Shown here piece after piece: positions 14,130 through 44,726 of a DNA stretch of 48,967 bases. Positions within the stretch are counted from its first letter, which is position 1, and every line of letters begins with the position of its first letter. Source of the stretch: Desulfobacterales bacterium (lineage in GTDB: Bacteria; Desulfobacterota; Desulfobacteria; Desulfobacterales; SG8-13); contig JBAPWQ010000132.1 of the NCBI GenBank assembly GCA_049283795.1, positions 1 through 48,967 on the forward strand, read 5' to 3'. The notes beneath the pieces are model-generated. The model was not told the origin of the DNA. It made no database searches and saw only the letters and a list, made by a program, of their open reading frames with translations. The position numbers and the translations under genes were made by a program.

Positions 14130-14147
14130 CCCTTGCCGGCTGGAGAT

Positions 14148-14786: not shown

Positions 14787-14803
14787 TCCGCCATAAAATT
14801 CAC

Positions 14804-14831: not shown

Positions 14832-14959
14832 GTTTATTCAATCATCAAGGGCCCGTCGATTGTCGCCGGGCCGGTTTCGTACTGAAGGGCAGCTCCATTT
14901 GACCAAGTGGCACCTGCAGTTTGGGACCATGAGAATTTTTATGAAAGGAGGGTGTCATC

Positions 14960-15160: not shown

Positions 15161-15175
15161 ATTTTTCCATTTTTT

Positions 15176-15227
15176 TAAAAAGAGAGGGTAATTCACCGCT
15201 TGCGGGTGAAATGCCCTCTCTTTTTTT
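15176..15227. terminator. bidirectional intrinsic terminator between csp (+) and the MscS-type channel gene (-)
   Basis: AGAGAGGG(15181-15188)...TTCACC-gcttgcg-GGTGAA...CCCTCTCT(15214-15221) forms a long hairpin. It is flanked by an A-run upstream and T7 downstream. Confidence 0.75.
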
Positions 15228-15334
15228 GTAAGCCTTTAATTATCATGGTTAATCCTTGCCGACAAGATGCCGAAGTTCTTTTTTCGATCGAAGACAACGG
15301 CAAAGGATTCGATGCGCGGGAGGTCAAAGGCTGA

Positions 15335-28801: not shown

Positions 28802-30477
28802 TAATTCATCTCTTTCTGCGGCGAGCCGTCTGCGGCGCCGGCGCGGTTTTCCCGGGCCGGTAAAAAATGTTTCTGCATCCGTTCGATCAGCGGCATGAGG
28901 GTTGCGGACGTCGTGGCCGAAACCGGAATTCCGTCCAGCCGGACGGCCAACCCGCGCACCCGTTCCCGATCGACCAGGTCCTGCTTGTTCAACACCCTTA
29001 TGACCGCCAGCTTCTCGAGCTTCAGGTCGTTGAGGATGTTTTCCACCGCCTGGATCTGCTCCGGATGCCGCGGGTTGCTGATGTCGATGACGTGCAGCAG
29101 CAGGTCGGCGTTTTCGAGTTCCTCCAGGGTCGCCCGGAAGGCGGCCACCAGGTCCTGCGGCAAATCCCTTATGAAGCCCACCGTGTCGGTGATGATCACC
29201 TCGATGTCGCGCGGGAATCTCAGCCGCCGGCTGGAGGGGTCCAGGGTGGCGAAGAGCCTGTTTTCGACCAGTTCGCTGCTCTTGGTCAGGGTGTTCAACA
29301 GCGTCGACTTGCCGGCATTGGTGTAGCCCACGATCGAAATGATCGGCAGCCGCTTCTTGCTGCGCCGGGCACGCTGCTGCTTGCGCTGGCGGCGGACCAG
29401 AACCAGGGCCTTTTCCAGCTGGGCGATCCGGTCGCGCACCCGCCGGCGATTGATCTCCAGCTTGGTCTCGCCGGGTCCGCGCCCGCCGATGCCGCCGGTC
29501 AGGCGCGACATGGCCGTATTCTTGACGATCAGCCGCGGCAGCATGTACTTCAACTGCGCCAGCTCCACCTGGAGCTTGCCTTCGCGCGAGAGGGCGCGCT
29601 GGGCGAAAATATCCAGGATCAGCATCGTGCGGTCGATGACCTTGATATCGACCCGATCGGTAATCGAGCGGATTTGAGAAGGGTTCAAATCCTGGTCGAA
29701 GACGATCAGGGTGGCCCCGCGGTTGAGCGCCGTCAGGGTCAGCTCCTCCACCTTCCCGCGGCCCAGCAGGAAACGGGCATCGGCCTGTTGACGATGCTGG
29801 AGGAGGGCATCGACCACCTCGATGCCGCTGGAGGCCGCCAGCTCCTCGAGTTCGGCCAGCGAGTCGCGGGCCATGCGGCCGGGGGCGCCGGTGACGCTGA
29901 CCAGCAGGGCGCGCTCCCTGCCCCGCGCGGCGCGGTGCAGCGCGCGCAGCTGGCCCAGTTCTTCCTCCAGGGCCTTTATCAGGCCGAGGCAGTCGATATC
30001 GATCGCATTGGCCGCCAGGGGGGCCAGCAGCCGCCAGGGGGTCTCGGCCGGGGCGCCGGGAAGGATATGGGCCAGGTGGACGCGCGGCAGTTCGGTTTCC
30101 GCGACGGCCGTGACGATCCCCATCAAATCGAGCCTGAGCAGGGCCAGGTCGGTCAGGTCGTCCTTGGACGGCGGTTCGCCGTTCAGGTGGGTGTGCAAAC
30201 ACCGCAGGCCGCGCAGGCGGCCGGGCGCGGCGCGGTATTCGCCAAGGTCGGGGATGACGATTTTGCGATGATCGCCGACGATGACGGTGACGATCCGGCC
30301 GCCGCGGTCGATGAGAAGGCCGATCTGACGCCGGCTTTCGTTGGACAGGCTGCTCAGTTCGCGCGCCAGTTCGAAGGAGATGACCTGATCGGGAGAGACC
30401 CGGCGCCGGTAGAGCTTTTCGAGCCGCCGCGTCTGGTTCGCCTTGAGGCCGCCGGTGTTGCCGTGGAGCCGTTTCAT
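28801..30477 (-). CDS. hflX: GTPase HflX (with an extended N-terminal region)
   Basis: 558 aa. G1 GYTNAGKSTLLN, G3 DTVGF, G4 NKQD. HflX N-domain and linker helices (ELAQLKYMLPRL). Confidence 0.9.
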   Translation of the reverse strand: MKRLHGNTGGLKANQTRRLEKLYRRRVSPDQVISFELARELSSLSNESRRQIGLLIDRGGRIVTVIVGDHRKIVIPDLGEYRAAPGRLRGLRCLHTHLNGEPPSKDDLTDLALLRLDLMGIVTAVAETELPRVHLAHILPGAPAETPWRLLAPLAANAIDIDCLGLIKALEEELGQLRALHRAARGRERALLVSVTGAPGRMARDSLAELEELAASSGIEVVDALLQHRQQADARFLLGRGKVEELTLTALNRGATLIVFDQDLNPSQIRSITDRVDIKVIDRTMLILDIFAQRALSREGKLQVELAQLKYMLPRLIVKNTAMSRLTGGIGGRGPGETKLEINRRRVRDRIAQLEKALVLVRRQRKQQRARRSKKRLPIISIVGYTNAGKSTLLNTLTKSSELVENRLFATLDPSSRRLRFPRDIEVIITDTVGFIRDLPQDLVAAFRATLEELENADLLLHVIDISNPRHPEQIQAVENILNDLKLEKLAVIRVLNKQDLVDRERVRGLAVRLDGIPVSATTSATLMPLIERMQKHFLPARENRAGAADGSPQKEMN

Positions 30478-30492
30478 GGCCGTGCCGCCGCC

Positions 30493-31878
30493 TTATCCGG
30501 GAAACGGGACGATGTTGTCCTGGCTGGCCGGGTTTTCGAAGCGGGTGTAGGCATTCAGAAATACCAACGGCACCGTGCCGATCGGCCCGTTGCGCTGTTT
30601 GGAAATAATGATCTCGGCCTTGCCCTTGTTCGGGTTGTTTTCGTCCTTGTTGTAGACTTCGTCACGGTAGATGAAGGCCACGACATCGGCGTCCTGTTCC
30701 AGGGCGCCGGATTCCCGCAGGTCCGAGAGCTGCGGCCGCTTGTCGCTGCGCTGTTCGAGCATCCGGTTGAGCTGGGACAGGGCCACGACCGGCAGGCTGA
30801 GTTCCTTGGCCAGGGCCTTCAAGGCCCTGGATATCTCGGAGATTTCCAGTTCCCGCCGTTCCGCCGACCGCCGGCCCTGCATCAGCTGCAGGTAGTCGAT
30901 GATCACCAGCCCGATGTTTTTGTCGAGTTTCAACCGGCGCGCCTTGGCCCGTATTTCCATGGCGGTCAGCACGGGCGAATCGTCGATGAAAATAGGGGCG
31001 TTGGTCAGGGTGCCGGCCGCTTCGGTAATCTGCTGCCAGTGCTCCTGGCTGATGAACCCGGTGCGCAGCCGGGTCGAGTCGAGCCGGGCTTCGCTGCTGA
31101 GCATGCGCATCGACAGCTGTTCCTTGGACATTTCCAGGGAGAAGATCGCGACCGGCACGCCGGCATCGATTGCGGCGTTGCGGGCGACGTTCAGCGCGAA
31201 GGCCGTTTTTCCCATCCCGGGCCGGGCGGCCAGGATGATCAAATCGGATTTCTGAAACCCCGAGGTTTTGTGGTCCAAAAGGGTGAAGCCGGTGGTGACC
31301 CCGGTGATCAGGGATTTGTTCCCCTGCCGCTCCTCGAGCATGTCGATGTTGTTCACGATCAACTTGCTTAAGGGGTGAAAGGACTGGTGGGCCTTGTTTT
31401 CGGTTATTTCGAAGACCGATGCCTCGGCGAAGTCGATCACCTCATCGACCTCGTCACGGTCCTCGTAGCAGCGGCGGGTGATGTCGGCCGCTTTGCGGAT
31501 CAGGCTCCGCAGGCTGGCCTTGTCGTGCACGATTTTGGCGTAGTGCGGGGCGTTGACGGCCAGGGGCACCGTATCGACCAGGCGCGCCAGATAGGCGGGA
31601 CCGCCGACCAGGTCGAGCTGGCCGAGTTGTTTCAGATGGTTGGAGAGCGTCACCAGGTCGATCGGTTCGTTGCGGCCGAAAAGTTCGGTCATGGCGGCGA
31701 AAATTTTCTGGTGGGCGGTCTTGTAAAAATCATCGGCGGCCAGGATTTCGAGAACATCCAGCAGGGTGTGGTTGTCCACCAGGATCGCGCTGATAAGCGA
31801 TTCCTCGGCCGCGATGTTTTGCGGCGGCAGATGGACCAGGGAAGGGTCTGTTTCTTTGACAAGGGATCTCTCGGGCAT
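30493..31878 (-). CDS. dnaB: replicative DNA helicase DnaB
   Basis: 461 aa from the ATG at 31878. PPQNIAAEESLISAIL N-domain, Walker A ARPGMGKTAFALN, IIDYLQLM, QLSDLRESGALEQDAD. Confidence 0.93.
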   Translation of the reverse strand: MPERSLVKETDPSLVHLPPQNIAAEESLISAILVDNHTLLDVLEILAADDFYKTAHQKIFAAMTELFGRNEPIDLVTLSNHLKQLGQLDLVGGPAYLARLVDTVPLAVNAPHYAKIVHDKASLRSLIRKAADITRRCYEDRDEVDEVIDFAEASVFEITENKAHQSFHPLSKLIVNNIDMLEERQGNKSLITGVTTGFTLLDHKTSGFQKSDLIILAARPGMGKTAFALNVARNAAIDAGVPVAIFSLEMSKEQLSMRMLSSEARLDSTRLRTGFISQEHWQQITEAAGTLTNAPIFIDDSPVLTAMEIRAKARRLKLDKNIGLVIIDYLQLMQGRRSAERRELEISEISRALKALAKELSLPVVALSQLNRMLEQRSDKRPQLSDLRESGALEQDADVVAFIYRDEVYNKDENNPNKGKAEIIISKQRNGPIGTVPLVFLNAYTRFENPASQDNIVPFPG

Positions 31879-32256
31879 GGAGGCGGACCTGCTGTCGGGC
31901 GGTGATCTCGAATTGATGTGAAAGAAGGACGGCCCGTGTGCATGTGCACAATGTCGGGTGCCGCCCCGGATGCCACCACCCATCCCGTACCGGCGGCGCT
32001 GCCGGGGTACAGCTGACGATGACAAAGAGTTTTCTTGAAAAATTCCGGCGCCGGCCGGGCCCCAGGCTCCCCGGGCCCCTCGACGGGCCGGCCGCACACC
32101 GGCCCGGTCGGACAATCAGGCCGTGATCAGCGTCCTTGAGCGGGGGTTGCGGCGACACGCCGGTCCCGCCGCCCCTCGTTGCGGTCATTGCGGGCCGGAT
32201 ACTCGAAAAAGTCACCGGAGCCCTTTTTCGGACGCTTCCCGCTTCGGGGACCGGTT

Positions 32257-32703
32257 TCAGGATTCCGGAACGATTTCGACCGTGATTTCCGGCTCGACAT
32301 CCTTGTAAACCCGGATCGGAACCATGTGGGTGCCGATCTGCTTGATCGGGTCGGTCAGCAGAACCATCCTTTTCTCGACCGTGATGCCCTGCTTTTCGAG
32401 GGCGTCCATGATGTCCCGCAGGGTGATCGACCCATAGAGCCGGTCTTCTTCACTGACCTTGGCCGGGATGGTCACCGTGACGCCGTGGAGTTTTTCGGCC
32501 ATTTCCTCGGCAGTTTTCTTTTCGCGGGCGATCTGTACCTCGAATTTCGCTTTGACCTGTTCGAGTTGCTTGCGGTTCTGCGATGTCGCCATCAACGCCT
32601 TTTTTTGCGGGAGCAGGTAATTGCGGGCATAGCCCTTGGCCACATTGACTTCAGAGCCGATGATGCCAAGCGAATCGATTGTTTCCGTCAACAAGACCTT
32701 CAT
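32257..32703 (-). CDS. rplI: 50S ribosomal protein L9
   Basis: 148 aa from the ATG at 32703 (RBS ggagg upstream). MKVLLTETIDSLG...VAKGYARNYLLPQKKA. Confidence 0.93.
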   Translation of the reverse strand: MKVLLTETIDSLGIIGSEVNVAKGYARNYLLPQKKALMATSQNRKQLEQVKAKFEVQIAREKKTAEEMAEKLHGVTVTIPAKVSEEDRLYGSITLRDIMDALEKQGITVEKRMVLLTDPIKQIGTHMVPIRVYKDVEPEITVEIVPES

Positions 32704-32778
32704 GTCATAAACCTCCAATAATCGGAAAGGTGCGGCCGGCGGCGTCGTCCGGGCACGGCGAATTTGATGCCGGCGGGG

Positions 32779-33732
32779 TCAGTTCTTTTTCTCGATCCCC
32801 AGTTTTCTGAAATTCAACCACATGTCGAAAAAACCAAGGCCCACGACGACCAGCAGAACGAGTTGCTGCAAAGCGATGAGACTGTACAAAACGATGCGCA
32901 GCAGGCGCGGAAAGCGCTTTTTTTCAAAGTAGAATGAAATGATGGCGATACCCTGAAAAAAATACACCGTCATCAGGACCAGCAGACCGTTGATGCCGAA
33001 AATTTTGACGGTGTGCCCGGGAACCATCAGCAAGAGGCCGCACCCGATCACGCTCCAAACCAGCGGTTCGGGCGCTTTCCACAGATCGAGGCGGCCAAAG
33101 TCCGGCGACGGCAGGTCGAAGCGTCTGAGCAGCGGCCGCGACAGCAGCAGGCTGGTCCACGACAAGAAGAGCGCCGCCGATGCCGCCAGGGCCGGAACGA
33201 TGCGCACCAGAACGTACTGGATGCCGTCCAGGGCGTCCTTTATGGCGCCGATGGTGTCGGTCGGGACCCCCATGCTCTCGTAAAGTCGGAGCGAGGCTTC
33301 CAGGTTGGCGCGCACATAGCCGGCGGCCAGTTGACCGATGCCGAGCCCGGTCATGGTACTGTAGACCAAAACGATAAACAGGCCGGCCGCCAGGAGGGCG
33401 GCGCTGTTCAGCACGACCGTTTTTTCGACCGGCAGCCGCAGGGCAAACAGTTCGTAAAGGACGTAACCGCAGAGAACCAGCTCGAAAAAATAGAGCAGGT
33501 CGATCGAAAAACCGCCGAGCATCGGCACCAGCGTCAGGAGCGCGACAGCCGGCACCAGGCCGCCGCCGTACCGGCCGTGTTTGGCGCGGCTGAGCATCGT
33601 AGGCAGCGGAATGAGGACGGTGCAGAAGAACCCGAGGACCGGCGATCGAAGCGTCAAGACGAACAGGATGCTGGTGACGCCGATGCCGATCGCCATGTTC
33701 TTGAGTGTGTCGACGGAGCCGATCAGGGCCAC
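32779..33732 (-). CDS. DUF2232 (YybS-like) polytopic membrane protein
   Basis: 317 aa, GTG start. Highly hydrophobic multi-TM protein in the conserved position between rpsR and rplI. Confidence 0.65.
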   Translation of the reverse strand: MALIGSVDTLKNMAIGIGVTSILFVLTLRSPVLGFFCTVLIPLPTMLSRAKHGRYGGGLVPAVALLTLVPMLGGFSIDLLYFFELVLCGYVLYELFALRLPVEKTVVLNSAALLAAGLFIVLVYSTMTGLGIGQLAAGYVRANLEASLRLYESMGVPTDTIGAIKDALDGIQYVLVRIVPALAASAALFLSWTSLLLSRPLLRRFDLPSPDFGRLDLWKAPEPLVWSVIGCGLLLMVPGHTVKIFGINGLLVLMTVYFFQGIAIISFYFEKKRFPRLLRIVLYSLIALQQLVLLVVVGLGFFDMWLNFRKLGIEKKN

Positions 33733-33780
33733 GATCCTCTTCTCCGTGAGGCAGCCTGCGAAACGGATCGGCAGCCGCTG

Positions 33781-34047
33781 CTAATCCAGGCTGCCGACGA
33801 ACGGCAGCAAGGCGATGGCACGGGCGCGCTTGATCGCCAAGGTCAGGGGCCGCTGGTGTTTGGAACAGGTCCCGGAGATGCGCCGCGGAATGATCTTTCC
33901 CCGTTCGGTGATGAAATATTTCAGGTTTTTCGAATCCTTGTAGTCGATCTGGAGGCTGCTGTCGGCGCAGAACCGGCAGACCTTGCGCCGGTGGTAGATT
34001 CTTTTTTTGCGCGCGCCGCCGCTGCGGGGTCTGTAGGGGGGTGCCAT
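33781..34047 (-). CDS. rpsR: 30S ribosomal protein S18
   Basis: 88 aa. CRFC...IDYKD...[25 protein letters not shown]. Confidence 0.93.
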
Positions 34048-34050
34048 ATC

Positions 34051-34536
34051 TTACTCCTCCTTGCCGGTTTCGGGTTCAGGCGATTCAGGTGTGACGGCCT
34101 CTGCCGGCTCCGTCTGCGCTTCGGCCTTGGCTTCCACGGCATCCGCGGGGGGGGATTTCTCGGCCGCCTGTGCCGCTGTCGCGGCTTCGGCCTTCTTCTT
34201 TTCACTCTCGGCGTGTTCGGCCTCGGCCTTGATCTTGTCGACGTCGGCCGCTTCATCGATCAACACGGTCAGATACTTCATGACCCGGTCGTCGATCCGG
34301 CAGAAACGTTCGATTTCATCGACGATGGTGCCGGTGCCGCAGAAATCGAAGCGGGTGTAAAACCCGCGGGGCTTTTTCTTGATTTCATAGGCCAGCTTGC
34401 GGCTGCCCCAATCGTCGCGCAGCACCAGAAAGCCATTTCCCTGGGAAATGGTGTCACTGATGCGCTCGTAAACCGGCGTCCGTCCGTCCTCGGAAATATC
34501 CGGATCCAGGATGATGATCGTTTCGTACCTGCGCAT
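34051..34536 (-). CDS. rpsF: 30S ribosomal protein S6 with a roughly 60-aa Ala/Glu/Lys/Pro-rich C-terminal extension
   Basis: 161 aa. MRRYETIIILDP...WGSRKLAYEIKK core, followed by a low-complexity tail. Confidence 0.9.
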   Translation of the reverse strand: MRRYETIIILDPDISEDGRTPVYERISDTISQGNGFLVLRDDWGSRKLAYEIKKKPRGFYTRFDFCGTGTIVDEIERFCRIDDRVMKYLTVLIDEAADVDKIKAEAEHAESEKKKAEAATAAQAAEKSPPADAVEAKAEAQTEPAEAVTPESPEPETGKEE

Positions 34537-34900: not shown

Positions 34901-35599
34901 ATGAAAAACGTGCGCCACGGGTTTGCCATATTTTTCGCCGTTGTTACCATGACTGCACTGATCGCTGGTGCCGCGCCGCCGGCCGCCGCCGAAGTGAGCG
35001 CACAGCAGGGCCTCGTGGATGCGGCCCTGGTGACGTTCAACAATTTCATGCGGGCGGAGAGCATGACCTGGCTGCGCGACCACCTGCACGAAGCCAGGGG
35101 CCTGCTGATCATTCCCAACCTGCTCAGAGGCGGATTCATTCTCGGGGGCTCCGGCGGCCGCGGGGTGCTGCTCGTCAGGGATGCCAAGGGGCAATGGAGC
35201 CCGCCGGCTTACTACAGCCTCGGGTCGGTGAATTTCGGGCTGCTGATCGGCGGAGAGGCCGCCGAAGTGCTGATGGTGATCCGCACCCAGGCCGCCGTGG
35301 ACAAACTGCTGGCCTCTTCCTCCTTCAAGCTCGGAGGGGACCTGGCCATTACGGTCGGACCGTTCGGCGGCGGGGCGAAGACCAACATCATGGCCGATAT
35401 TTATTCGTTTGCCCTCTCCAGGGGCCTGTATGTCGGCGTCTCCCTGGAAGGCGCAATCGTCGCGACCCGCGACGAATGGAACGCCGCCTACTACGGCGGG
35501 GCCGTGTCACCGGCCGAAATACTCATCCTGAATTCCGTCAGCAACCCGGGCGCGGAAAACCTGCGGCAGGCCATCGCTCAGGCGGCCGTGGTCAGATAA
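34901..35599 (+). CDS. secreted SYLF (Ysc84/DUF500) domain protein, paralog 2
   Basis: 232 aa. Signal peptide, then ARGLLIIPNLLRGGFILGGSGGRGVLLVRD...WSPPAYYSLGSVNFGLLIGG. Confidence 0.8.
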   Translation: MKNVRHGFAIFFAVVTMTALIAGAAPPAAAEVSAQQGLVDAALVTFNNFMRAESMTWLRDHLHEARGLLIIPNLLRGGFILGGSGGRGVLLVRDAKGQWSPPAYYSLGSVNFGLLIGGEAAEVLMVIRTQAAVDKLLASSSFKLGGDLAITVGPFGGGAKTNIMADIYSFALSRGLYVGVSLEGAIVATRDEWNAAYYGGAVSPAEILILNSVSNPGAENLRQAIAQAAVVR

Positions 35600-35743: not shown

Positions 35744-38146
35744 ATGCTGAATGAACTGGACGAGATCCTGGAAAAGGACGAGCGCAAGGACTTCAGGGAG
35801 TATATCGCCCTGCTGATCAACCAGGAGCAGCAGTTTTTCCTGCGCAACGAGATTCTCTGCCACTGGCGCGGGTATTGCGACGCGAAGAATAAACCGCCGC
35901 ATTTCGAGGACACCTCTTCCATTTCCGCATTTCTTAAAAAAGTTCAGGAACTTTTCATTCTCGAAGATCGCATCGTCATCCTGCACCGCTTCGAGATCGC
36001 CCGCTACCGGTATTATCTTCTGGGGTGCGACGGGGATTTCATGGAAGAAATCGACCGGCGGTCTTTCCTGGACTTGAAGGACCGCTACGTTCTGGCGGGC
36101 CGAGGCGCGGGCACCCACCTGCACCTCGATTTCGTTCCGTTCTACGATTATTCACCCTCGATCCGCGACACCCGGACCATCGGCAACGGCATCCGGTTCC
36201 TCAACCGCTACCTGTGCAGCAGCATCTTCAGCCGGCCGGACGAATGGAACACCAAGCTGTTCGATTTCATCAAGCTTCACAATCACAACGGGCGCCAGCT
36301 GCTGGTCAACGGCGCCGTGATCAAGGATTTCGAGACCTTTTTCAGCACGCTCGAGCGCACCGTCAAGCGCCTCAAGGGCCGCCCGGCCGAAACCCCCTTC
36401 GCCGCGGTTGAATCCGAGCTGCAGCAGCGCGGTCTCGAGGTCGGCTGGGGCGACACGGTCGGGCGCATCCTCGAGACCATGCAGCTGCTGATCGATCTGC
36501 TCGGCGAGCCGAGCGTGTCGCTGATGGAACAGTTCATTTCGCGGGTGCCGATGCCGCTGATCTCCAAGATCGCCATCGTGTCGCCGCACGGCTGGTTCGG
36601 CCAGACCAACGTGCTCGGCAAGCCCGACACCGGCGGCCAGGTGATTTACATTCTCGACCAGGTGCGGGCGCTCGAAAAGCACCTGCGCGAGGAAATCCGT
36701 TTGACGGGACTGGCGGTGGAGCCCCAGATCATCGTTGTGACGCGCCTGATTCCCGATGCGGGCGACACCACCTGCGGGCAGCGCCGGGAGAAGATTTTTC
36801 AAACCCGCAACGGGTGGATCCTGCGCGTTCCTTTCCGCGACAAGGATTACACCGTCGTGCCGCACTGGATTTCCCGTTTCAAGATCTGGCCCTATCTCGA
36901 GGATTTCGCGGCCGACGCGGCCACGGAACTCAGCGGCGAGTTCGAGGGCCGGCCCGATCTGATCATCGGCAATTATTCGGACGGCAACCTGGTGGCCACG
37001 CTGCTCTCCGACAAGTTCGACGTGATCCAGTGCACGATCGCCCACGCGCTTGAAAAAACCAAGTATCTCTTCTCGGACATGTACTGGTTCGACAAGGAGG
37101 ACGACTATCACTTCTCGCTGCAGTTTTCGGCCGACATGCTCTCGATGAACAAGTCGGATTTCATCATCACCAGCACCCACCAGGAGATTATCGGCACCGA
37201 AGACACCATGGGCCAATACGAATCCTACCAGTCGTTCAGCCTGCCCGGCCTCTACCAGGTGCAAAGCGGCATCAACCTCTTTGCGCCCAAGTTCAACGTG
37301 ATTCCGCCGGGGGTCGACGAAAACCTCTATTTCCCGTACACCGAGACGGAAAAACGGCTCGATGCCCAGCGGCGTTTCTGGCACGACCGGCTGCTGGGCG
37401 AGCGCGGCGCGGATGTTTTCGGCACTCTGAAAGACCCGGACAAACCGGCGCTGTTCACCATGGCGCGTTTCGACAAAATCAAGAACATCACCGGTCTGAT
37501 CGAGGCTTTCGGGATGAGCCGCCGGCTCAGGGAGCACTACAACCTGATTTTTGCCGCCGGCACCATCGATGCCGAAGCCTCGCAGGATGCCGAGGAGCGC
37601 GAGGAAATCGCGAAGGCCTACCGCCTGATCGAGCGCTACGCGCTGACGGATTGCCTGCGCTGGCTGCCGAGCATCAGCAAGCCCGAGACCGGCGAGGTGT
37701 ATCGCATCATCGCCGACAACGGCGGGATTTTCGTGCAGCCGGCGTTTTTCGAGGCCTTCGGGCTGACCATCCTGGAAGCGATGGCCTCGGGCCTGCCGAC
37801 TTTCGGGCCCCAGTTCGGCGGTCCGCTGGAAATCATCGAGCCCGGGGTGAGCGGGCTGCTGCTCAACACCAGCAAGCCAGAGTTCATCGCCGCCGCCCTG
37901 GAGGAATTCCTCGACGGCTGCCAGGCCGATCCCGGCAACTGGGAGAGGCTGTCGGTCAACGGCATCCGCCGGGTCCGGGATCATTTCAACTGGCACCTGT
38001 ACAGCCGGCGGCTGATCAACCTGTCCAAACTCTACGGCTTCTGGCGCTATTCGGTGTCGGGCAAGGGCAAGGTCGGGCTGGACCGCTACTGCGACGCCCT
38101 GTACCACTTCCTGATCCGGGAGCGCGCCCGGCAGATGGCCGGATAG
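35744..38146 (+). CDS. sucrose synthase (UDP/ADP-glucose:fructose glucosyltransferase, GT4)
   Basis: 800 aa, the usual size for sucrose synthase. N-terminal regulatory region, GKPDTGGQVIYILDQVRALE block (plant/cyanobacterial SuS read PDTGGQVVYILDQVRALE), and GT-B C-terminal EAFGLTILEAMASGLPTF. Confidence 0.85.
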   Translation: MLNELDEILEKDERKDFREYIALLINQEQQFFLRNEILCHWRGYCDAKNKPPHFEDTSSISAFLKKVQELFILEDRIVILHRFEIARYRYYLLGCDGDFMEEIDRRSFLDLKDRYVLAGRGAGTHLHLDFVPFYDYSPSIRDTRTIGNGIRFLNRYLCSSIFSRPDEWNTKLFDFIKLHNHNGRQLLVNGAVIKDFETFFSTLERTVKRLKGRPAETPFAAVESELQQRGLEVGWGDTVGRILETMQLLIDLLGEPSVSLMEQFISRVPMPLISKIAIVSPHGWFGQTNVLGKPDTGGQVIYILDQVRALEKHLREEIRLTGLAVEPQIIVVTRLIPDAGDTTCGQRREKIFQTRNGWILRVPFRDKDYTVVPHWISRFKIWPYLEDFAADAATELSGEFEGRPDLIIGNYSDGNLVATLLSDKFDVIQCTIAHALEKTKYLFSDMYWFDKEDDYHFSLQFSADMLSMNKSDFIITSTHQEIIGTEDTMGQYESYQSFSLPGLYQVQSGINLFAPKFNVIPPGVDENLYFPYTETEKRLDAQRRFWHDRLLGERGADVFGTLKDPDKPALFTMARFDKIKNITGLIEAFGMSRRLREHYNLIFAAGTIDAEASQDAEEREEIAKAYRLIERYALTDCLRWLPSISKPETGEVYRIIADNGGIFVQPAFFEAFGLTILEAMASGLPTFGPQFGGPLEIIEPGVSGLLLNTSKPEFIAAALEEFLDGCQADPGNWERLSVNGIRRVRDHFNWHLYSRRLINLSKLYGFWRYSVSGKGKVGLDRYCDALYHFLIRERARQMAG

Positions 38147-38213
38147 CGGTTGGTTCTGAAACCGGTGCCGGCGGCAGAAAACAGATCGCCGAGCCGCCCC
38201 CCGGCGCCGCATC

Positions 38214-39191
38214 TTATCGATCGGGCGCGTCGGGGCGCGGGACGTCTTTTTCAGAGTAGTAATAATCGTAGCGGGAGAGAATGTCGCGGGTGAAGTTCCA
38301 GGCCTCGTTGTAGGACAATCCGCTGGCTTCCGGGATGATGATCTTGACGTAGAGCTTTTCCTGCAGGCGGTCTCTGAGCCTATCGAGCCGGGTTTCCAGT
38401 TCCGCGCGCGTGACGGGCTCGTACCCCTGGTCCCCGGGCCCGCTGAAGAGGATGCGGACCCGGCCGTCCTGACGGGAGTACTGCACGGTGACGACTTCCT
38501 TGCCCAGTGCGCTGCGCGCCGGGCGGATGAGGCGCTGGTATTTGTCTTCGAGCACCAGGTAGTCCTTGCGCTGCCTGGCCAGGGAGAGTTCCAGGTCTGT
38601 CTTCTCCGCCCCCAGGGCGACGATCAGGTCTTCCTTTTCCCCCAGACGCTCCATCAGGGCCGCGAACTTGCGGTTGAATTCCTCGATCTGACGCTCGGTC
38701 TCGGCGCTGATCGCCTTCAGCCGTTCCTCATAACCGGTGGCGAGGGCCTGTTTTTCAGATTCGGTGGCCGCCAGCCGGCGCTTCAACTCCTCGGCCTCGG
38801 CTTCGATCGCGGCCGTATTTTTCTGCAGCGCGGTAATCAGGGCCACCTTGGCCTCGAGCGTGCTCTGCACCACCTTGTTCTCGTCGCCGAGCAGGATGAT
38901 TTCCATCTGCCGCGCGCGCAACTTCTCCTCCAAATTGGTGATCACGACCTTCAGGGCGTCACGCTCGCCGCGGGTCTCCGCCAGCATCGACTCGAGCTGC
39001 CGCTCCTCGCCCTGACTCAGGACCAACTCGCGGGCCAGGTCGGCGTTTTTTATGATGACCACGACCATGGTGAGCATGAAAATCATCAGGATCACGGTCA
39101 TGATGTCCGTGAAGCTGGGCCAGATGGAGATATCGGACATCTGGCGGCGATGATTCTGCCGCAGATCGATGAAATTTTCGAAGTTGTGCAT
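38214..39191 (-). CDS. MotB/ExbD-like membrane protein: N-terminal MotB-type TM with conserved Asp, about 190 aa of coiled coil, small C-terminal alpha/beta domain; no OmpA-like domain recognised
   Basis: 325 aa. WPSFTDIMTVILMIFML resembles MotB YADFMTAMMAFFL. Residues ~45-240 are heptad-like and E/K/R/L/A/Q-rich. The C-terminus is EVVTVQYSRQDGRVRILF...LYVKIIIPEASGLSYNEAW. 12-nt gap to the upstream MotA-like gene. Confidence 0.6.
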   Translation of the reverse strand: MHNFENFIDLRQNHRRQMSDISIWPSFTDIMTVILMIFMLTMVVVIIKNADLARELVLSQGEERQLESMLAETRGERDALKVVITNLEEKLRARQMEIILLGDENKVVQSTLEAKVALITALQKNTAAIEAEAEELKRRLAATESEKQALATGYEERLKAISAETERQIEEFNRKFAALMERLGEKEDLIVALGAEKTDLELSLARQRKDYLVLEDKYQRLIRPARSALGKEVVTVQYSRQDGRVRILFSGPGDQGYEPVTRAELETRLDRLRDRLQEKLYVKIIIPEASGLSYNEAWNFTRDILSRYDYYYSEKDVPRPDAPDR

Positions 39192-39203
39192 CTTTTCAGC
39201 CGT

Positions 39204-40172
39204 CTATGGTGGCGGCGGGTCTTTCAACCGGAAGCCGTCTTTGAGCACCGTCTCGATTTTCAGCAGTTGGTCGAGGAGCTGCCGGCCCTGTTCGGCCTGG
39301 CTGTCCTGGCGGTTGGCAAGGGCCGCGAACTGCGACAGGAAGGCGCGGTTGTATTTGTTGAGGCCGGTCAGGGAGGTGCGGATGACATCGGTGCCGGCCT
39401 TCATGTCCTCGACCAGCAGCTGCAGCTCCGAGACCAGCCGCTCGGTTTTGTAGTTGACCGCCTCGGAATCGAAGGCGAATTCCGGGATGATGTGCAGCAG
39501 CACGGCTTCTTCGACCCGGCTGAGGACATAGGTTTCGAGGTCCGCCAGGCGCTGGTAGAAGAAGGTGAACACGAAGAAACAGACGATGGCGGTGGCCGTG
39601 GTGTTCAGGGCCGTGTTCATGCCCAGCAGCATCACCCCCATGCCCTCGCCGGCGGCGTTGCTGCGCAGGACCGCCGTGGCCCCGATCAGGGCGTAGATCA
39701 GCGAGACGATCGTGCCGAAGACGCCGGTCAGGATGAGCACGTTGTTGACGAACTTGGGGTAGGACAGGTTCAGGGATTCTTCGGCGACCGTGATGGCGGC
39801 GATCGCGCCGTGATTGATCGGTACCTGGCGCTCGTGCAGGCTTTTGATGGTGGCGTAGCGCCGGCCGATGAGCGAGGTTGCGGCCAGCTCTTCGGGTGCA
39901 AAGCGGCGGGTCTCCTTATCGTGTACAAACGACGCGACCTGCTGCTCCTCGCGGCCCAGATGGGCGACGGCCCTGACCAATTGAATCAGGCCGGTGAAGA
40001 AGAGCAGCAGGATGAACCCGTTGAGAACGACCGTTTTCGTGTCGACCAGGTAAACTCTGCTAAACAGGTCCTGGTGCCGCACGGCCAGGGCGGCCAGCGC
40101 GCCGACGACCACCAGCAGGGTGAGCAGCATGTGAATCAATGCGCGTCCGCTTCGGGTGCGGGTGAATGTCAT
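39204..40172 (-). CDS. MotA/TolQ/ExbB-family proton-channel-like protein (4 predicted TM helices, ~110-aa C-terminal tail)
   Basis: 322 aa from the ATG at 40172 (RBS GGGAGG at 40179-40184; ORF open to 40199). LTGVFGTIVSLIYAL and ALNTTATAIVCFFVFTFFY resemble the conserved TM3/TM4 channel blocks (LLGLLGTV.GM / AL.TT..GL..AIP). Confidence 0.6.
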   Translation of the reverse strand: MTFTRTRSGRALIHMLLTLLVVVGALAALAVRHQDLFSRVYLVDTKTVVLNGFILLLFFTGLIQLVRAVAHLGREEQQVASFVHDKETRRFAPEELAATSLIGRRYATIKSLHERQVPINHGAIAAITVAEESLNLSYPKFVNNVLILTGVFGTIVSLIYALIGATAVLRSNAAGEGMGVMLLGMNTALNTTATAIVCFFVFTFFYQRLADLETYVLSRVEEAVLLHIIPEFAFDSEAVNYKTERLVSELQLLVEDMKAGTDVIRTSLTGLNKYNRAFLSQFAALANRQDSQAEQGRQLLDQLLKIETVLKDGFRLKDPPPP

Positions 40173-40270
40173 CGGCAGCCTCCCGTGGCCGTCGGGCACA
40201 CGAACCGCGGCAGCGAGTTTGTTTTCAGCGTGCCCTGGCCGCTTTTTGGTTTATGGCTCTCAGTGAAAAA

Positions 40271-40299
40271 ACTATCCGACTTTTTCCAGTATTAGTCAA
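40271..40299 (-). promoter_or_regulatory. possible sigma-70 promoter TTGACT-N17-GATAGT upstream of the MotA/MotB-like pair
   Basis: Minus-strand -35 at 40294-40299 and -10 at 40271-40276, about 100 nt upstream of the ATG at 40172. Preceded by hairpin GCCACCGAT-tcccaa-ATCGGTGGC. Confidence 0.3.
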
Positions 40300-40382
40300 G
40301 GCCGTTAGCGCCACCGATTTGGGAATCGGTGGCGTCGATCCGGTGAGTCAATCTCGATGTCAAACGACCGATCCGGTCTTGG

Positions 40383-41231
40383 TTACCTCCCCACAGGACA
40401 GGAAAGTTCGCATTTACGGCAGTATTTGATAATTTTGACCGGTTCATCGAAACCTTCAACGATTTGCTTCCTGGCCATATCGTTGTCCAGCTCCATCTGA
40501 ACATTGCACGTTGGACGGGAATAGACGCCGCTCCGTCCCGGGAGTCGTTTTTGACCGTAGTCTTCCGTTTTATAGATCTGGTTGCTGAAGGCGCCTTGGG
40601 GGCAGGCTCGCCGGCAGGGCGCATCGCACCCTTCGCATGGGTCGAAGCCAAGGGGCCCGGTCGAGGGAACAGCGACATCCAATGTGAGGGCGCGCAGCCT
40701 TACCCGGGGACCATACTCCGGGGTTACCAGGATATTGTTCTTACCGATACAACCCAAGCCGGCCAGAACCGAGGCATCCTTTAGGAATGTGCCGCCTTTT
40801 TCAATGTGGTATGGAAGATGAAAGGTTTTTATACCATAGGTATCCGGGATCCAGGTGCACAGCTGCTGCACTACGTTGGCTAAAATGCGGTTCCCGGGCG
40901 GATCCACACGACCGAACCACCAATCCAATTCCGGTTTGGCAGCCGGATGTTCGACCGCGATCACCAGGACGCTTTCGGCACCCTCTGGCCAGGCTACTTC
41001 CCCCGGTTTGAGGCCCGAGGCGCTCTTCCGGGCCCCGATACCGTCACCGGCACCAGGCATTTTCGGGGCAAAGGTGAAAGACGGAGCGGTTTTTAAATTA
41101 TCCACAAGAGCAAAACCTGCCAGCGTTGCACCCAATTCTTTGGCCATTTTTATGATGGCGGACGAAGTGTTCAATATCGTGCTGGTTTTCATTTTCAGTC
41201 CTTTTCGTCCATGAGATCCTTTTTCTTTCAA
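40383..41231 (-). CDS. QueG/RdhA-superfamily 4Fe-4S protein (epoxyqueuosine-reductase-like, short form)
   Basis: 282 aa (alternative ATG at 41192 with RBS aagga). GLGCIGKNNILVTPEYGPRVRL resembles QueG GLGWIGKN. Two ferredoxin-type motifs: CEGCDAPCRRACP and CRKCELSCP. Lacks the C-terminal extension of canonical QueG. Confidence 0.6.
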   Translation of the reverse strand: MKEKGSHGRKGLKMKTSTILNTSSAIIKMAKELGATLAGFALVDNLKTAPSFTFAPKMPGAGDGIGARKSASGLKPGEVAWPEGAESVLVIAVEHPAAKPELDWWFGRVDPPGNRILANVVQQLCTWIPDTYGIKTFHLPYHIEKGGTFLKDASVLAGLGCIGKNNILVTPEYGPRVRLRALTLDVAVPSTGPLGFDPCEGCDAPCRRACPQGAFSNQIYKTEDYGQKRLPGRSGVYSRPTCNVQMELDNDMARKQIVEGFDEPVKIIKYCRKCELSCPVGR

Positions 41232-41246
41232 AAAGAAGTCATTGCC

Positions 41247-42827
41247 TCAGGCCGATTTCTTGATTTTATCCGAAGGCAAGGCAATGGTTCTGTTCTGAAG
41301 CAGTTCGGAATAGTCTTCCCGGAGCCATTTCATTAAAGACACCACCATCAGTATGAGAACCGGCATCAGCGGCAGGGCCACAATGATGGACGAGAGCTGC
41401 ACCGCCTTCAACGCGCCGGTGGAAAGAAGGCCCACGGCAAACAAGCCCAGGATGATACCCCACAGGGTGCGGTTCCAACGTGGCGGCTCCTCCGTTCCAG
41501 AGATCACACGCGTGACCTGTGAGGACAGCGTGTAGGCCGCGGAGTTGAGGGTCGTGGCCAGGAAGATGAAACAAAGCAGGGTAAACACGGGAATAAAAAG
41601 GTATTTTGACCCGGGAATAGAGTCTAATATGGCGACGATGGTTACATCGTTGGACCATCCGGACTGCTTCAGTATGCCATACACATCCAGAGTCCCGGAT
41701 GTCTGCACATGGATCGCATAGCCGCCCCAGATGGCGAAAAAGACCCAACACCCCAGACTGCCGTAAACCAGTTCACCGAAAATTACCTGCCGAATGGTTC
41801 TTCCCCGCGAGATACGGGCCACAAACAGACCCATCATGGGGGCATAGGCGACCCACCAGGCCCAGTAGAATACCGTCCAGCCCTCCGGGAACCCGCCGTT
41901 GCTGATGGGGTCCGTCCAGAGGCTCAGTTTTATAAAGTCATTGAACATGAGGCCCAGGCTGTTGCACCAGGTATTCAGGATAAAGGTCGTCGGACCGATG
42001 ATGAAGACATAAGCCAATAGAAAATAAGCGATGTAGGTGTTCAGGTCCGCCAGCTTGGCGATACCGGATTTCAAACCCGCCCAGACAGTGAAGGTGAATA
42101 GGGCGGTCCAGATGGAAAGAATAACCAGCTGCAGGCCAAAAGACATCGGCAAACCGGTCATCTTGCTCACCAGGCTGCTCACCAGCGGAACTGCCAGTCC
42201 CAGAGAAGTCCCGACGCCACCGATCATGGCGAAAATTACAACTGTGTCGATCAATTTACCGAAGAAGCCATCGGCATGGGCGCCAATCACGCCCCGGCAG
42301 GCGGCACTGAGCCGCAGTGCTGGAATTTTCTTGACATGAATGGCGTAGGAGATAGGAAAGGTGGGCAGGGCGTAAATGGCCCATGGCGTAATCCCCCAAT
42401 GAAATTGGCCGTACATTCCGGCCAGTTCGCCGATTATTCCTTTCTGACTATTGGGATCGAAATGCAGGATACTGGTGTTCATGTAATAAACCGGCTCGAT
42501 GAAGGCCCAGTAAACGATGGCGATCCCGATGCCGGCGCAAAAGATCATGGCCGCCCATGTGTAGGTGGAAAATTCCGGCTCGTCTTCGGGAGTCCCGAGC
42601 TTGATTGCCCCCCACCGACTGAAACCCAGCCAGATCAGGAAGACGACGCAAAAAAGGCCGAACAGTAAATAGAGCCATTTGAAGTTGTGTGTGATAAACG
42701 CGAAAATAGCGTCTACAGCCGCTTTCCCTTCCACGGGAAAGAGGGCGAGCAACAGGCCGGTCAAAGCCGTTACGATCACCCCGGGCCACATTAATGCGTA
42801 GTTGATTGATGATGTTTTCCCCGCCAT
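41247..42827 (-). CDS. BCCT family transporter (betaine/carnitine/choline-type)
   Basis: 526 aa from the ATG at 42827 (RBS aaggagg upstream). BCCT signature WTVFYWAWWVAYAPMMGLFVARISRGRTIRQ, plus WGAIKLG and FHWGITPWAIY. Confidence 0.9.
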   Translation of the reverse strand: MAGKTSSINYALMWPGVIVTALTGLLLALFPVEGKAAVDAIFAFITHNFKWLYLLFGLFCVVFLIWLGFSRWGAIKLGTPEDEPEFSTYTWAAMIFCAGIGIAIVYWAFIEPVYYMNTSILHFDPNSQKGIIGELAGMYGQFHWGITPWAIYALPTFPISYAIHVKKIPALRLSAACRGVIGAHADGFFGKLIDTVVIFAMIGGVGTSLGLAVPLVSSLVSKMTGLPMSFGLQLVILSIWTALFTFTVWAGLKSGIAKLADLNTYIAYFLLAYVFIIGPTTFILNTWCNSLGLMFNDFIKLSLWTDPISNGGFPEGWTVFYWAWWVAYAPMMGLFVARISRGRTIRQVIFGELVYGSLGCWVFFAIWGGYAIHVQTSGTLDVYGILKQSGWSNDVTIVAILDSIPGSKYLFIPVFTLLCFIFLATTLNSAAYTLSSQVTRVISGTEEPPRWNRTLWGIILGLFAVGLLSTGALKAVQLSSIIVALPLMPVLILMVVSLMKWLREDYSELLQNRTIALPSDKIKKSA

Positions 42828-42953
42828 GGTTTCCTCCTTTTCTCTGTTCAGGATGAGGTTCGGACATTGTGATTTGGGTCTCATGCCAATCAAAAAGATC
42901 CCCCGAACCCGGTGGTTGTAAGGTGATGCCGCGCAGGCATCGTTCGGGGTCTT

Positions 42954-42970
42954 CAGCAAATGGCGTGCCG
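42954..42970 (-). promoter_or_regulatory. sigma-54 (-24/-12) promoter upstream of the BCCT gene
   Basis: The minus strand reads cGGCAC-GCCAT-TTGCt. It matches TGGCAC-N5-TTGC with correct spacing, about 130 nt upstream of the BCCT ATG. A sigma-54 activator gene lies immediately upstream. Confidence 0.65.
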
Positions 42971-43109
42971 GTGGTCGGAAACGTTACCGGTTCTGGATGG
43001 CGGATTTACGATTTGAGAGGTAACTTGTTTAAATCATGTTGGATATATATTGAGTAAAAGACGGCAGGTGTGGATCAAACTTAATGGCAAAAAATAATCA
43101 CGTCAAAAT

Positions 43110-43136
43110 TGTAAAAAACGTAAAAATAACTTTACA
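43110..43136. promoter_or_regulatory. candidate enhancer (UAS) inverted repeat TGTAAA-N15-TTTACA
   Basis: Lies in an AT-rich spacer about 150-175 bp upstream of the -24/-12 element, a typical distance for bEBP binding sites. Confidence 0.3.
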
Positions 43137-43229
43137 CAAAAAAACAAATAAATTTTACTTAAAGGTCCCGTGAGCCTGTTCAGTGGCGAATATTCGAGAA
43201 AGGCTTGATTGATCCGGAAGCCCAAGCGG

Positions 43230-44726
43230 CTATTTAAACCGGAGGCCGTGTTTTTTCACCTTGTAATTCAGCAATTGACGGGAGATACCAAGCTTTCTGG
43301 CGGCTTCGGCCAAGTTTTCACCTGATTCGGCCAGGGCCTTATTAATATTGTCGATCTCCAGGCGTTTTTTCATTTCCTGGATGCTGATCTTGGGGGGGCA
43401 GGAAGCGGCAGACCGGGATGGTTTCGGTCCGATTTGCGGAAAATCTTCACTCGGGCTGGGAGACAAGAAAGGCAGGGCTGGTCGGTTTTCGGAGGCGTGT
43501 TGAAAACGGGCCAACTGGTCGAGATGGAAATTTAGGTGCTTAAGATTAATTAGTTTTTCATTGGGGCTGACCAGATTCACAGCGCCCTCGATCACGTTTT
43601 CCAGCTCCCGGACGTTGCCGGGCCAATTATAATTCCAAAAAAGATCCATCACCCGACTGGAAACACCAATCAGGTTTTTAGCCAGTGCGAGATTGTATTT
43701 GAGAAGGAAGTGTCGCACCAGCTCTTCGAGGTCCAGTTTGCGTTCCCGAAGAGGCGGTATCTTGATGGAAATAACCGCCAGGCGATAGAACAGGTCCATG
43801 CGGATGATCCCGCGGCGCACCGCCTCTTGAGGATCGATGTTCATGGAACTCATAATCTTGAGTTCGACCTTTATATTCTCCAGCGAACCGACCCGACGGA
43901 CCTCGTTTTCCTGGAGCACCCGCAAGAGCTTGCCTTGAAGACCTATAGGCAGAGAGTTGATTTCGTCCAGAAAGATGGTGCCGTTGTTGGCCTTTTCGAA
44001 CAGCCCGGCCCGGTCAACGGCCCCGGTGTAGGCTCCTTTGGAGGTGCCGAAGAGAATCCCTTCGATGAGGGTTTCGGGAATGGCGGCGCAGTTAATGGCG
44101 ATATAATGCCGTTTCTTGCGGTAATAAAAATTATGGATGGACTGGGCGAAGAGTTCTTTGCCGACCCCAGTTTCCCCGCAGAGAAGAACATGCGACGGTG
44201 AATTAGCTGCCATTTTGGCCGTTTTTAAGGCATGGATAAACTCCGGGGCCGAACCGATGATGTTGGCAAAGGTGAATTGGGTTCCTTCGGCAAAGATCTC
44301 GTTATTTTTAGGCATCAAAAACGACGGGATGCTTCGCTCGAGGATATTGTAGTCCTTTACGAAGCAAATTGTTCCGATCATCTCCTTGGTGCGATTGTAA
44401 AGAGGAAACACGCTGTGGATGGTATTGCCCACGTTGGCCTTCTTGGATCGATAGGACAGGGCGTAGTTGATGATTGGCCGGCCGTGCTTGATGCAACGCA
44501 TGCAGGTACTCGAGTCGTTATCGTATTCGTAGACGTCGGTGATCTTCTTGCCGAGGGCTTCACCGGGGTCTAGATTGTCGATCTTGGCCTGAGTCTCATT
44601 GTAGTACACCATCGTGCCATCCATATCGGTCATCAGAACACCCTGATCGAAATCGTCGAATAGCTCCAGGAAATCGATTTCCTCGAACTTGAGTCTCCCT
44701 TGCCAACGGTATTTATTCAACCCCAT
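43230..44726 (-). CDS. sigma-54-dependent transcriptional activator (PAS - AAA+ - Fis-type HTH)
   Basis: 498 aa. N-terminal PAS-like domain, Walker A GETGVGKE, GAYTGA (GAFTGA variant), Walker B GTIFLDEI, and C-terminal HTH NLAEAARKLGISRQLLNYKVKKHGL. Confidence 0.9.
   Translation of the reverse strand: MGLNKYRWQGRLKFEEIDFLELFDDFDQGVLMTDMDGTMVYYNETQAKIDNLDPGEALGKKITDVYEYDNDSSTCMRCIKHGRPIINYALSYRSKKANVGNTIHSVFPLYNRTKEMIGTICFVKDYNILERSIPSFLMPKNNEIFAEGTQFTFANIIGSAPEFIHALKTAKMAANSPSHVLLCGETGVGKELFAQSIHNFYYRKKRHYIAINCAAIPETLIEGILFGTSKGAYTGAVDRAGLFEKANNGTIFLDEINSLPIGLQGKLLRVLQENEVRRVGSLENIKVELKIMSSMNIDPQEAVRRGIIRMDLFYRLAVISIKIPPLRERKLDLEELVRHFLLKYNLALAKNLIGVSSRVMDLFWNYNWPGNVRELENVIEGAVNLVSPNEKLINLKHLNFHLDQLARFQHASENRPALPFLSPSPSEDFPQIGPKPSRSAASCPPKISIQEMKKRLEIDNINKALAESGENLAEAARKLGISRQLLNYKVKKHGLRFK

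Follow-up and report, generated by a model that had tools for sequence, protein, structure and literature searches.

A predicted two-gene relative of the 5:2 ion-driven motors with a long helical rod on its B subunit

Motors with a 5:2 ratio of A to B subunits drive flagella, Ton uptake, Tol-Pal envelope constriction, gliding and type IX secretion (T9SS), and Zorya defence, and the output of each is set by what is attached to A or to B; the known B subunits all keep their N-terminus in the cytoplasm. Surveys already report that non-flagellar relatives of MotAB are structurally heterogeneous, so the existence of another variant would not be shocking (PMC12505986), and a TolQ-like pentamer has been described that pairs directly with an Asp-bearing trans-pore-helix protein carrying a von Willebrand factor A (vWA) periplasmic payload, with no separate TolR or ExbD (PMC12204202). 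Here, we describe two adjacent genes, A and B (together A-B), on a 48,967-nucleotide (nt) contig of a Desulfobacterales bacterium (GenBank assembly GCA_049283795.1, JBAPWQ010000132.1, positions 1–48,967; hereafter the window), which an earlier inspection of the letters and open reading frames (ORFs), termed the sequence-only reading, had singled out as an orphan ion-channel pair. We favour, at a probability of about 0.62, the interpretation that A-B is a self-contained two-gene operon representing a divergent, uncharacterised branch of the MotAB/ExbBD/TolQR/ZorAB superfamily of ion-driven motors, in which the B dimer forms its own periplasm-spanning rod. Our literature search found no paper describing this family, and the main text of an mBio survey of MotAB relatives contains no mention of coiled coils (PMC12505986).

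Channel subunit A and the membrane helix of subunit B

Hydropathy places four transmembrane (TM) helices in A (residues 22–40, 57–75, 154–172 and 196–214, numbered on the 331-amino-acid (aa) version that begins at a GTG start), behind a positively charged N-terminus, with a ~78-aa insert between TM2 and TM3 and a ~115-aa tail after TM4; the helices also appear in the AlphaFold2 (AF2) model. Sequence profiles alone were too weak for this subunit, and a fold search coupled to Pfam scans of individual family members was needed. When the AF2 monomer model of A (33 homologues, predicted local distance difference test (pLDDT) 77) was compared with the PDB by Foldseek, the first 41 matches were ExbB or TolQ chains, followed by ZorA, PomA and MotA (probability 0.94–1.0, TM-score on the target 0.41–0.56, more than 207 aligned columns). 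The modelled structure thereby shows for A a predicted ExbB/TolQ/MotA/ZorA fold, with long TM helices running into a cytoplasmic helical domain. At the sequence level, Pfam MotA_ExbB (PF01618) matches A residues 144–221 (profile positions 45–117, E = 0.0019) and is matched by 30 of the 33 A relatives at E ≤ 0.1 (best E = 4e-5), while the PADLOC ZorA2 models are weakly matched by 21 of the 33. The sequence-only reading had seen in A two helices, a ~75-aa loop, two further helices and a ~110-aa tail, and had likened the helices to MotA, TolQ and ExbB; both descriptions hold up well against these results.

The alignment to E. coli TolQ (hhalign, A 151–219 on TolQ 133–196) pairs TM3–TM4 of A with TM2–TM3 of TolQ, setting GVFGT163 on GLFGT and NTALNTTATAI on AEALIATAIGL. 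Across 79 A homologues, down to ~32% identity, at least 97% keep P148, F150–N153, G159, G162, T163, S166, G193, T200, T201 and T203, and the same threshold is reached by N60, F67 and G70 in TM2 and by R114 and A139 in the cytoplasmic insert. A conserved polar and glycine face, recognisable by its G-x-x-G-T and A-L-x-x-T-A motifs, is thus predicted on the last two TM helices of A. The tail is poorly conserved except at its tip, where GFR(L) occurs in 83 of 83 homologues, some of them only 32% identical; neither a known motif nor a partner could be assigned to this tip.

Subunit B begins with a conserved N-terminus (MH.F...DLR), predicted to be cytoplasmic, whose first 23 residues carry R11, R15 and R16 and which is followed by WPSFTDIMTVILMIFML at residues 24–40. 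Among 67 B homologues, W24, P25, F27, T28, D29, I30, M31, V33, M36 and F38 are each kept in at least 97%, Asp29 being retained in 66, and hhalign places B 15–44 on TolR 10–38 with Asp29 on TolR Asp23. PADLOC ZorB1 profiles match B residues 12–116 (E = 1.2e-7), and the best PDB sequence matches of the B family profile are 8vvn_B (E = 6e-5), 8vvi_A (E = 0.004) and 8qyd_F. The 8vvn and 8vvi chains are ZorB of Zorya ZorAB complexes (PMC11890865), and 8qyd, with its sister entries 8qyh and 8qyk, belongs to a ZorAB cryo-electron microscopy series. By sequence, the closest relatives of the B N-terminus (its first ~100 residues) are ZorB proteins, and not MotB or ExbD; Pfam ExbD is matched, through the TM region, by 9 of 34 B relatives. 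OmpA (PF00691) and MotB_plug gave no match in window B, nor did they occur among the families listed for the 34 relatives. These findings bear out the earlier description of a MotB-like TM segment with an ion-coupling Asp and no OmpA block.

Taken across both subunits, exactly those residues that line the ion path in characterised relatives are shown to be under extreme conservation.

The predicted rod and end domain of subunit B

B is modelled by AF2 as one uninterrupted helix over residues 27–221 (pLDDT >90), with no Pro in 173 residues and with conserved hydrophobic positions that recur at a period of 3.45–3.65 residues over approximately residues 98–200, in keeping with the ~190 residues of heptad-like sequence noticed beforehand. 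In B homologues the linker from the TM segment to the end domain measures 140–308 aa (median 176), and 13 of the 29 distinct linker lengths fall in one residue class modulo 7; read in this way, linker lengths mostly change by whole heptads, as would be expected of a real coiled coil. The computed length of the rod in window B is ~26 nm (174 residues at ~0.148 nm each), which is roughly the distance from inner to outer membrane in well-studied diderms. The label attached to B by JGI, “chromosome segregation ATPase”, reflects the coiled coil only.

Two features of the linker deserve separate mention. The block RAKEMEIILLGDE (window 38886–38918, B residues 92–102) is strongly conserved among Desulfobacterales-type B proteins but is not kept across the whole family, and M96, L100 and D103 are invariant in 34 B sequences; it sits within the part of the helix (approximately residues 70–118) where the heptad signal is lost and may be a hinge or docking site ~7–8 nm above the membrane. 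Three Arenicellales B proteins (L068 8915–11098, L079 8936–11014 and L083 8954–11107) reach 692–727 aa with linkers of 552–587 aa. If straight, such rods would be ~80 nm long, far beyond any periplasm, and in these proteins the rod must double back, run alongside the membrane or have another purpose.

The end domain is modelled with β-strands at residues 232–241, 244–250, 258–260 and 280–285 and α-helices at 262–279 and 294–308 (pLDDT ~80–88), so that the ~85-aa alpha/beta region seen by the sequence-only reading reappears as a 90-aa alpha/beta domain. With no word filter applied, its profile retrieved 371 clusters (339 below 1e-10) from 1.84 billion cluster representatives, and among the 150 matches listed the domain was always C-terminal, in proteins of mostly 280–540 aa (shorter ones are probably fragments). 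Because this exhaustive search returns only 371 clusters and stays inside the family, the end domain is, as judged by sequence, specific to the A-B family. No significant relative was found in Pfam (28 isolated C-terminal domains) or, by profile, among PDB sequences; Foldseek with the full-length B model returned nothing from the PDB below E = 0.1; hhalign of the domain with E. coli TolR gave no match; and OmpA was absent both from the families listed for the 28 isolated domains and from the Foldseek matches of B. Small-domain Foldseek matches of B, to RNase-H-like cores and ribosomal proteins, had probabilities below 0.8 and were not interpreted. The proposal that the C-terminal pattern recalls the periplasmic domain of ExbD and TolR may be right but was not confirmed by these searches, and its one hint comes from Pfam scans: sub-threshold matches to Pfam ExbD (PF02472) occurred in 2 of the 28 domains, and the one re-examined reached E = 0.027 over profile positions 51–109 of 128, co-linear with the periplasmic part. 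The most conserved residues of the end domain are P224, R226, L269, L280, Y281, P287, A297 and the terminal D309-Y310-Y311, while Y294, N295, E296 and W298 are invariant among closer relatives; together they could present an aromatic and acidic surface of a kind typical for carbohydrate-binding sites.

Gene organisation, distribution and genomic context

Both minus-strand genes and the 12 nt between the stop of A and the start of B were confirmed (Table 1). The A ORF as listed runs from a GTG (39204–40199, 331 aa), and the ATG at 40172 is the more likely start, because GGGAGG lies 8 nt upstream of it and homologues begin at the same Met; this gives the 322 aa originally assigned. The promoter-like site and the terminator-like hairpin around A-B, both known from pattern matches, jointly fit an autonomous bicistronic unit, and an Rfam scan of the window returned no RNA family. 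GC content at third codon positions (GC3) is 0.87 for A and 0.84 for B, within the range of the bulk of the window (0.72–0.89), compared with 0.58–0.69 in the adjoining block 40383–44726, so that the pair is host-like and lies outside the low-GC block, as had been stated.

Table 1 Features of the A-B locus, in window coordinates
Feature	Position	Strand	Description
Gene A	39204..40172	(-)	322-aa four-TM MotA/ExbB/TolQ/ZorA-type channel subunit (predicted), N-in/C-in, ~115-aa helical cytoplasmic tail
Gene B	38214..39191	(-)	325-aa single-TM MotB/ExbD/TolR/ZorB-type subunit (predicted), long helix and family-specific C-terminal domain
A TM3-loop-TM4 core, PKFVNNVLILTGVFGT...GMNTALNTTATAI	39558..39758	(-)	A residues 148–214; most conserved block of the family
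GFRL motif	39225..39236	(-)	A residues 322–325; tip of the cytoplasmic tail
B trans-pore TM helix, WPSFTDIMTVILMIFMLTMVVVII	39051..39122	(-)	B residues 24–47; Asp29 codon 39105–39107
B Pro-free continuous helix	38529..39050	(-)	B residues 48–221; predicted periplasmic rod, heptads clearest at ~aa 98–200
B C-terminal alpha/beta domain (PARS...LYVKIIIPE.SGLSYNEAW.FT..IL..YDYYY)	38256..38528	(-)	B residues 222–312; family-specific
Sigma-70-like promoter candidate, TTGACT-17-GATAGT	40271..40299	(-)	~100 nt upstream of the A start; consensus match only, 1 found vs 0.4 expected
Terminator-like GC-rich hairpin and T-run	38187..38206	(-)	8 nt past the B stop; pattern match only, 4 found vs 3.0 expected in the region

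Homology searches returned 851 matches for B and 340 for A, nearly all unnamed or mislabelled “chromosome segregation ATPase”. A survey of one genome per GTDB species yielded 80 A-B loci, spread over about six phylum-level lineages of uncultured bacteria: Desulfobacterota (Desulfobacterales, Desulfuromonadales, Geobacteraceae), Thermodesulfovibrionia/Nitrospirae, Nitrospinota, Krumholzibacteriota, Fibrobacteraceae, Zetaproteobacteria and Gammaproteobacteria (Arenicellales, Sedimenticola, Chromatiaceae). In 68 loci the gene immediately after A is B, which often overlaps it by 4 nt; on the remaining A-bearing contigs the sequence runs out before the position of B can be read. By ORF clustering, no third conserved gene was found within ±7 kb in 79 loci, in which only A and B are shared; the remaining “conserved” clusters were rejected as antisense shadow ORFs, generic paralogues (ABC-F ATPases, membrane sensors) or lineage-restricted synteny. 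The three A-B neighbourhoods with called genes are mutually unrelated and of housekeeping character. In the window, 32 scanned ORFs (including all 18 of at least 300 aa) contained no flagellar, Tol-Pal, TonB, T9SS or Zorya-effector domains, and phmmer searches with E. coli TolQ, TolR and TolA found nothing in 84 loci and the window. The sequence-only reading had called A-B an orphan with no such genes in the window and no partner system, and this picture now extends to the wider set of loci. Neither A nor B was matched in phage, plasmid or IMG/VR collections, and an origin of the pair in a defence island or mobile element was rejected.

In the window, the pair is neighboured by a sucrose synthase gene that converges on B, and by ORFs for a Cys-rich protein, a BCCT transporter and a sigma-54 activator. 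The sucrose synthase (35744–38146) is full length, with a GT-B sucrose-synthase domain (E = 3e-133), in what is apparently a Desulfobacterales genome. The low-GC3 block, directly upstream of the pair, holds the 282-aa Cys-rich ORF (no Pfam match at 1e-5), the BCCT betaine/choline transporter and the PAS-sigma-54 activator, and was possibly acquired horizontally. Two Ysc84/SYLF-domain paralogues lie at 7046–7753 and 34901–35599, the second being syntenic with the pair in close relatives only. Window positions 23199–34536 are origin-proximal (uvrA, dnaA at 26661–28013, an hflX-like GTPase, dnaB, rpsF) and A-B is ~10 kb from dnaA, and in 8–9 Arenicellales or other gammaproteobacterial metagenome-assembled genomes (MAGs) the pair lies between mnmE and mnmG, in the order dnaN-dnaA | rnpA-yidD-yidC-mnmE-[A-B]-mnmG (loci L052, L056, L058, L060, L068, L073, L079 and L083, about 1–16000). 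That the pair lies near the origin in two distant lineages may be chance, or it may have to do with housekeeping expression.

Working model, rival readings and comparison with known systems

The alignments and neighbourhoods show for B a ZorB/TolR-type trans-pore helix with a near-invariant Asp, and a strict pairing of the A and B genes. A-B is very probably an A/B pair of the ion-driven motor superfamily and, by analogy with its relatives, probably works as an ion-conducting A5B2 complex. By homology, two B helices would be enclosed by five A subunits, H+ (or Na+) would enter from the periplasm and reach Asp29 along the conserved Thr/Ser/Gly face of A TM3/TM4 (T163, S166, T200, T201, T203), and this passage would drive stepwise rotation of A5 relative to B2. 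The B helix would leave the membrane on its periplasmic side, since its N-terminus is basic (Arg11, Arg15, Arg16) and homologous B subunits keep theirs in the cytoplasm. Two B chains would then pair as a parallel dimer to form the ~26 nm rod, tipped by two copies of the small aromatic-rich domain (Y294, N295, E296, W298, Y308, D309, Y310, Y311). The layer on which the distal domain may dock would be a ubiquitous one, peptidoglycan or else the inner face of the outer membrane; a universal envelope component is the most likely target because no partner is encoded nearby across about six phylum-level lineages. B would in this way serve as both axle and force transducer, as GldM does in gliding and T9SS, and need no separate partner gene, while the conserved A insert and the GFRL tip, which show that the cytoplasmic face matters too, could form a second interface.

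How far this scheme extends to function is a more tentative matter. That the rod transmits force to the outer envelope, or senses it, rather than merely anchoring the complex is a possibility to which we give somewhat worse than even odds. The fullest version of the model is less likely still and best regarded as speculative: an autonomous trans-envelope machine in which a 5:2 motor, a rotating or pulling coiled-coil shaft and a new envelope-binding tip would convey the proton-motive force to peptidoglycan or the outer membrane, with neither a TonB/TolA-like adaptor nor a dedicated outer-membrane partner, in a housekeeping envelope role in uncultured diderms of about six phylum-level groups.

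A number of observations weigh against the interpretation of A-B as a motor with a rod of its own. For the channel subunit, window A scores 18.4 bits on MotA_ExbB, below the gathering score of 22.9; the Foldseek E-values are only ~4e-3; and a hidden Markov model of the A family, searched against PDB sequences, recovers no ExbB or MotA but only spurious helical-bundle matches to the tail, for which reason the relationship of A to ExbB/MotA is a remote one in sequence terms. For the rod, whole-helix heptad periodicity in the single B sequence is modest (p ~0.03), the heptad signal breaks down around residues 77–104 and near both helix ends, and the spread of linkers from 140 to 308 aa, with 552–587 in the three Arenicellales, argues against a strict periplasm-width ruler. 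The AF2 runs of A and B were both of monomers, and all carriers in the survey are MAGs. Finally, one B homologue (L004 9061–10098, identical to L016 9055–10092; CP070697.1, Desulfobacterales bin589) reads WPGFTNVVV, with Asn in place of the TM Asp. Its partner A was not flagged for loss of TM3 (GxFGT), TM4 (NTAL) or GFRL, and the variant may be a natural D-to-N change, a degenerate copy or a sequencing error.

The rival that we take most seriously, although we consider it unlikely, retains the motor and reverses its working: B2 would be a long static anchor in peptidoglycan or the outer membrane, and the insert and the GFRL tail would pass the rotation of A5 to an unlinked partner in the cytoplasm or the inner membrane. 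This would suit the fixed role of the B subunit in MotAB and ZorAB (PMC11890865), the conserved cytoplasmic N-terminus of B, and the retention of the A insert (R114, A139 and others) and GFR in at least 97% of 79 homologues, as strongly as the channel; it sits poorly with a rod of 21–46 nm, which far exceeds the reach needed for peptidoglycan, with an end domain that is not OmpA-like, and with the lack of any conserved partner gene within ±7 kb in 79 loci. Distinctly less probable is a Zorya-like sentinel, in which the rod would sense envelope damage or phage and A rotation would signal through the short tail and its GFRL tip to effectors encoded elsewhere. The neighbourhoods are of housekeeping type, with mnmE and mnmG flanking the pair in 8–9 gammaproteobacterial loci, ZorC/D/E and any other conserved neighbour are missing from 79 loci, window A has no PADLOC match, B has no OmpA-type peptidoglycan-binding domain, and plasmids, phages and viral contigs gave no matches; the A tail, moreover, spans only ~115 aa, compared with the residues 237–696 removed in the Zorya I tail deletion (PMC11890865). 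What speaks for such a sentinel is that ZorB profiles and ZorB PDB chains are the best sequence matches of B, that ZorA2 is weakly matched by 21 of 33 A relatives and ZorA appears among the Foldseek matches, and that the cytoplasmic tail of A is helical and has an invariant motif at its tip.

We give little credence to the idea that the complex is inactive, with B a structural periplasmic coiled-coil spacer or tether, A a membrane scaffold and the channel features vestigial. It can draw on the Asn-bearing homologue, the sub-threshold Pfam score of window A and the JGI label that recognises in B nothing but its coiled coil; yet Asp29 persists in 66 of 67 homologues, and the polar and Gly residues of TM3/TM4 (at least 97% in 79 homologues from about six phylum-level lineages) are the strongest constraints in both proteins, which would be unexpected for a vestigial pore. 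An unusual flagellar stator of the MotAB/PomAB type is the least credible alternative of all: the four-TM, N-in topology is that of MotA, and PomA and MotA are found among the lower Foldseek matches, but ExbB/TolQ outrank MotA in the fold search, OmpA and MotB_plug domains are missing, no flagellar genes occur in the window or in 79 neighbourhoods, and the family is present in Fibrobacteraceae and Krumholzibacteriota MAGs.

If the working proposed for the self-contained A-B motor is correct, it would be the most compact of the trans-envelope energy transducers described: the rod and its family-specific tip are continuations of the B axle, and no further gene is linked to the pair. A-B may couple membrane energy to the cell envelope in a way that has so far gone unrecognised, and as a natural experiment it would show whether a coiled coil withstands the torque or tension that a 5:2 motor produces, a question raised on theoretical grounds in a review (PMC9389320). 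The analysis also gives a name to ~370 protein clusters now labelled “hypothetical” or, wrongly, “chromosome segregation ATPase”, and draws attention to two newly noted conserved elements, the YNEAW...YDYYY end domain and the GFRL tail tip.

Among described systems, ZorA/ZorB (PDB 8vvn, 8vvi, 8qyd; PMC11890865) resembles A-B in the N-terminal sequence of B, the Asp-bearing trans-pore helix and the MotA/ExbB-type core of A with its helical tail, and would share the 5:2 architecture predicted for A-B. The two differ in where the long element lies, which is cytoplasmic and on A in Zorya (the ZorA tail is very long, several hundred aa, compared with ~115 aa in A) and periplasmic and on B in A-B; ZorB has an OmpA-type peptidoglycan-binding domain where B has a ~174-aa rod and a new domain, and A-B lies in a housekeeping, non-mobile context with no ZorC/D (type I), ZorE (type II) or other effectors nearby and no third gene in 79 loci. 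ExbB-ExbD (with TonB) and TolQ-TolR (with TolA) provide the best structural relatives of A, and their TM Asp and Thr align in the TolQ/TolR comparison, so that the work of TolR plus TolA, or ExbD plus TonB, would be combined in a single B chain with a trans-pore helix, a long periplasmic extension and an end domain. ExbB and TolQ, however, have three TM helices and an N-out topology, whereas A has four and is N-in; TonB, TolA, Pal and TolB are missing from A-B neighbourhoods; the end domain of B has no significant match to ExbD/TolR (best E = 0.027); and the extension of B is a predicted heptad coiled coil. With MotA-MotB and PomA-PomB, A-B shares the four-TM A subunit, the Asp in the B TM helix and the superfamily, but it has neither plug or OmpA matches nor a flagellar context, and ExbB/TolQ and ZorB are closer.

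What GldL-GldM and PorL-PorM have in common with A-B is the idea of a B-type dimer reaching across the periplasm to act as the output shaft of a motor, and no match in sequence or fold was found: GldM is built of globular domains where B is a predicted coiled coil, A-B has no T9SS genes nearby and does not occur in Bacteroidota, and GldL/PorL and GldM/PorM were absent from the top 50 Foldseek matches of A and B. The NCBIfam family PRK09039 (“peptidoglycan-binding protein”, with a MotB-like TM segment and a helical region) touches B through its model NF006543, positions 8–165 of which match B residues 15–187 (E = 1.9e-7); B scores 31 bits, compared with a cut-off of 305, and the match ends at position 165 of 350, leaving the C-terminal half unmatched; to our knowledge this family is likewise uncharacterised. 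The nearest precedent is the TolQ-like system with a vWA payload (PMC12204202), from which A-B differs in its coiled coil and novel 90-aa domain, in having one B gene instead of heterologous pairs, and in its taxa. A-B lacks the features that define flagellar stators and the Tol/Ton, Zorya and GldLM systems, and its novelty lies in bringing together a coiled-coil rod carried by B, an end domain private to the family and full genetic autonomy.

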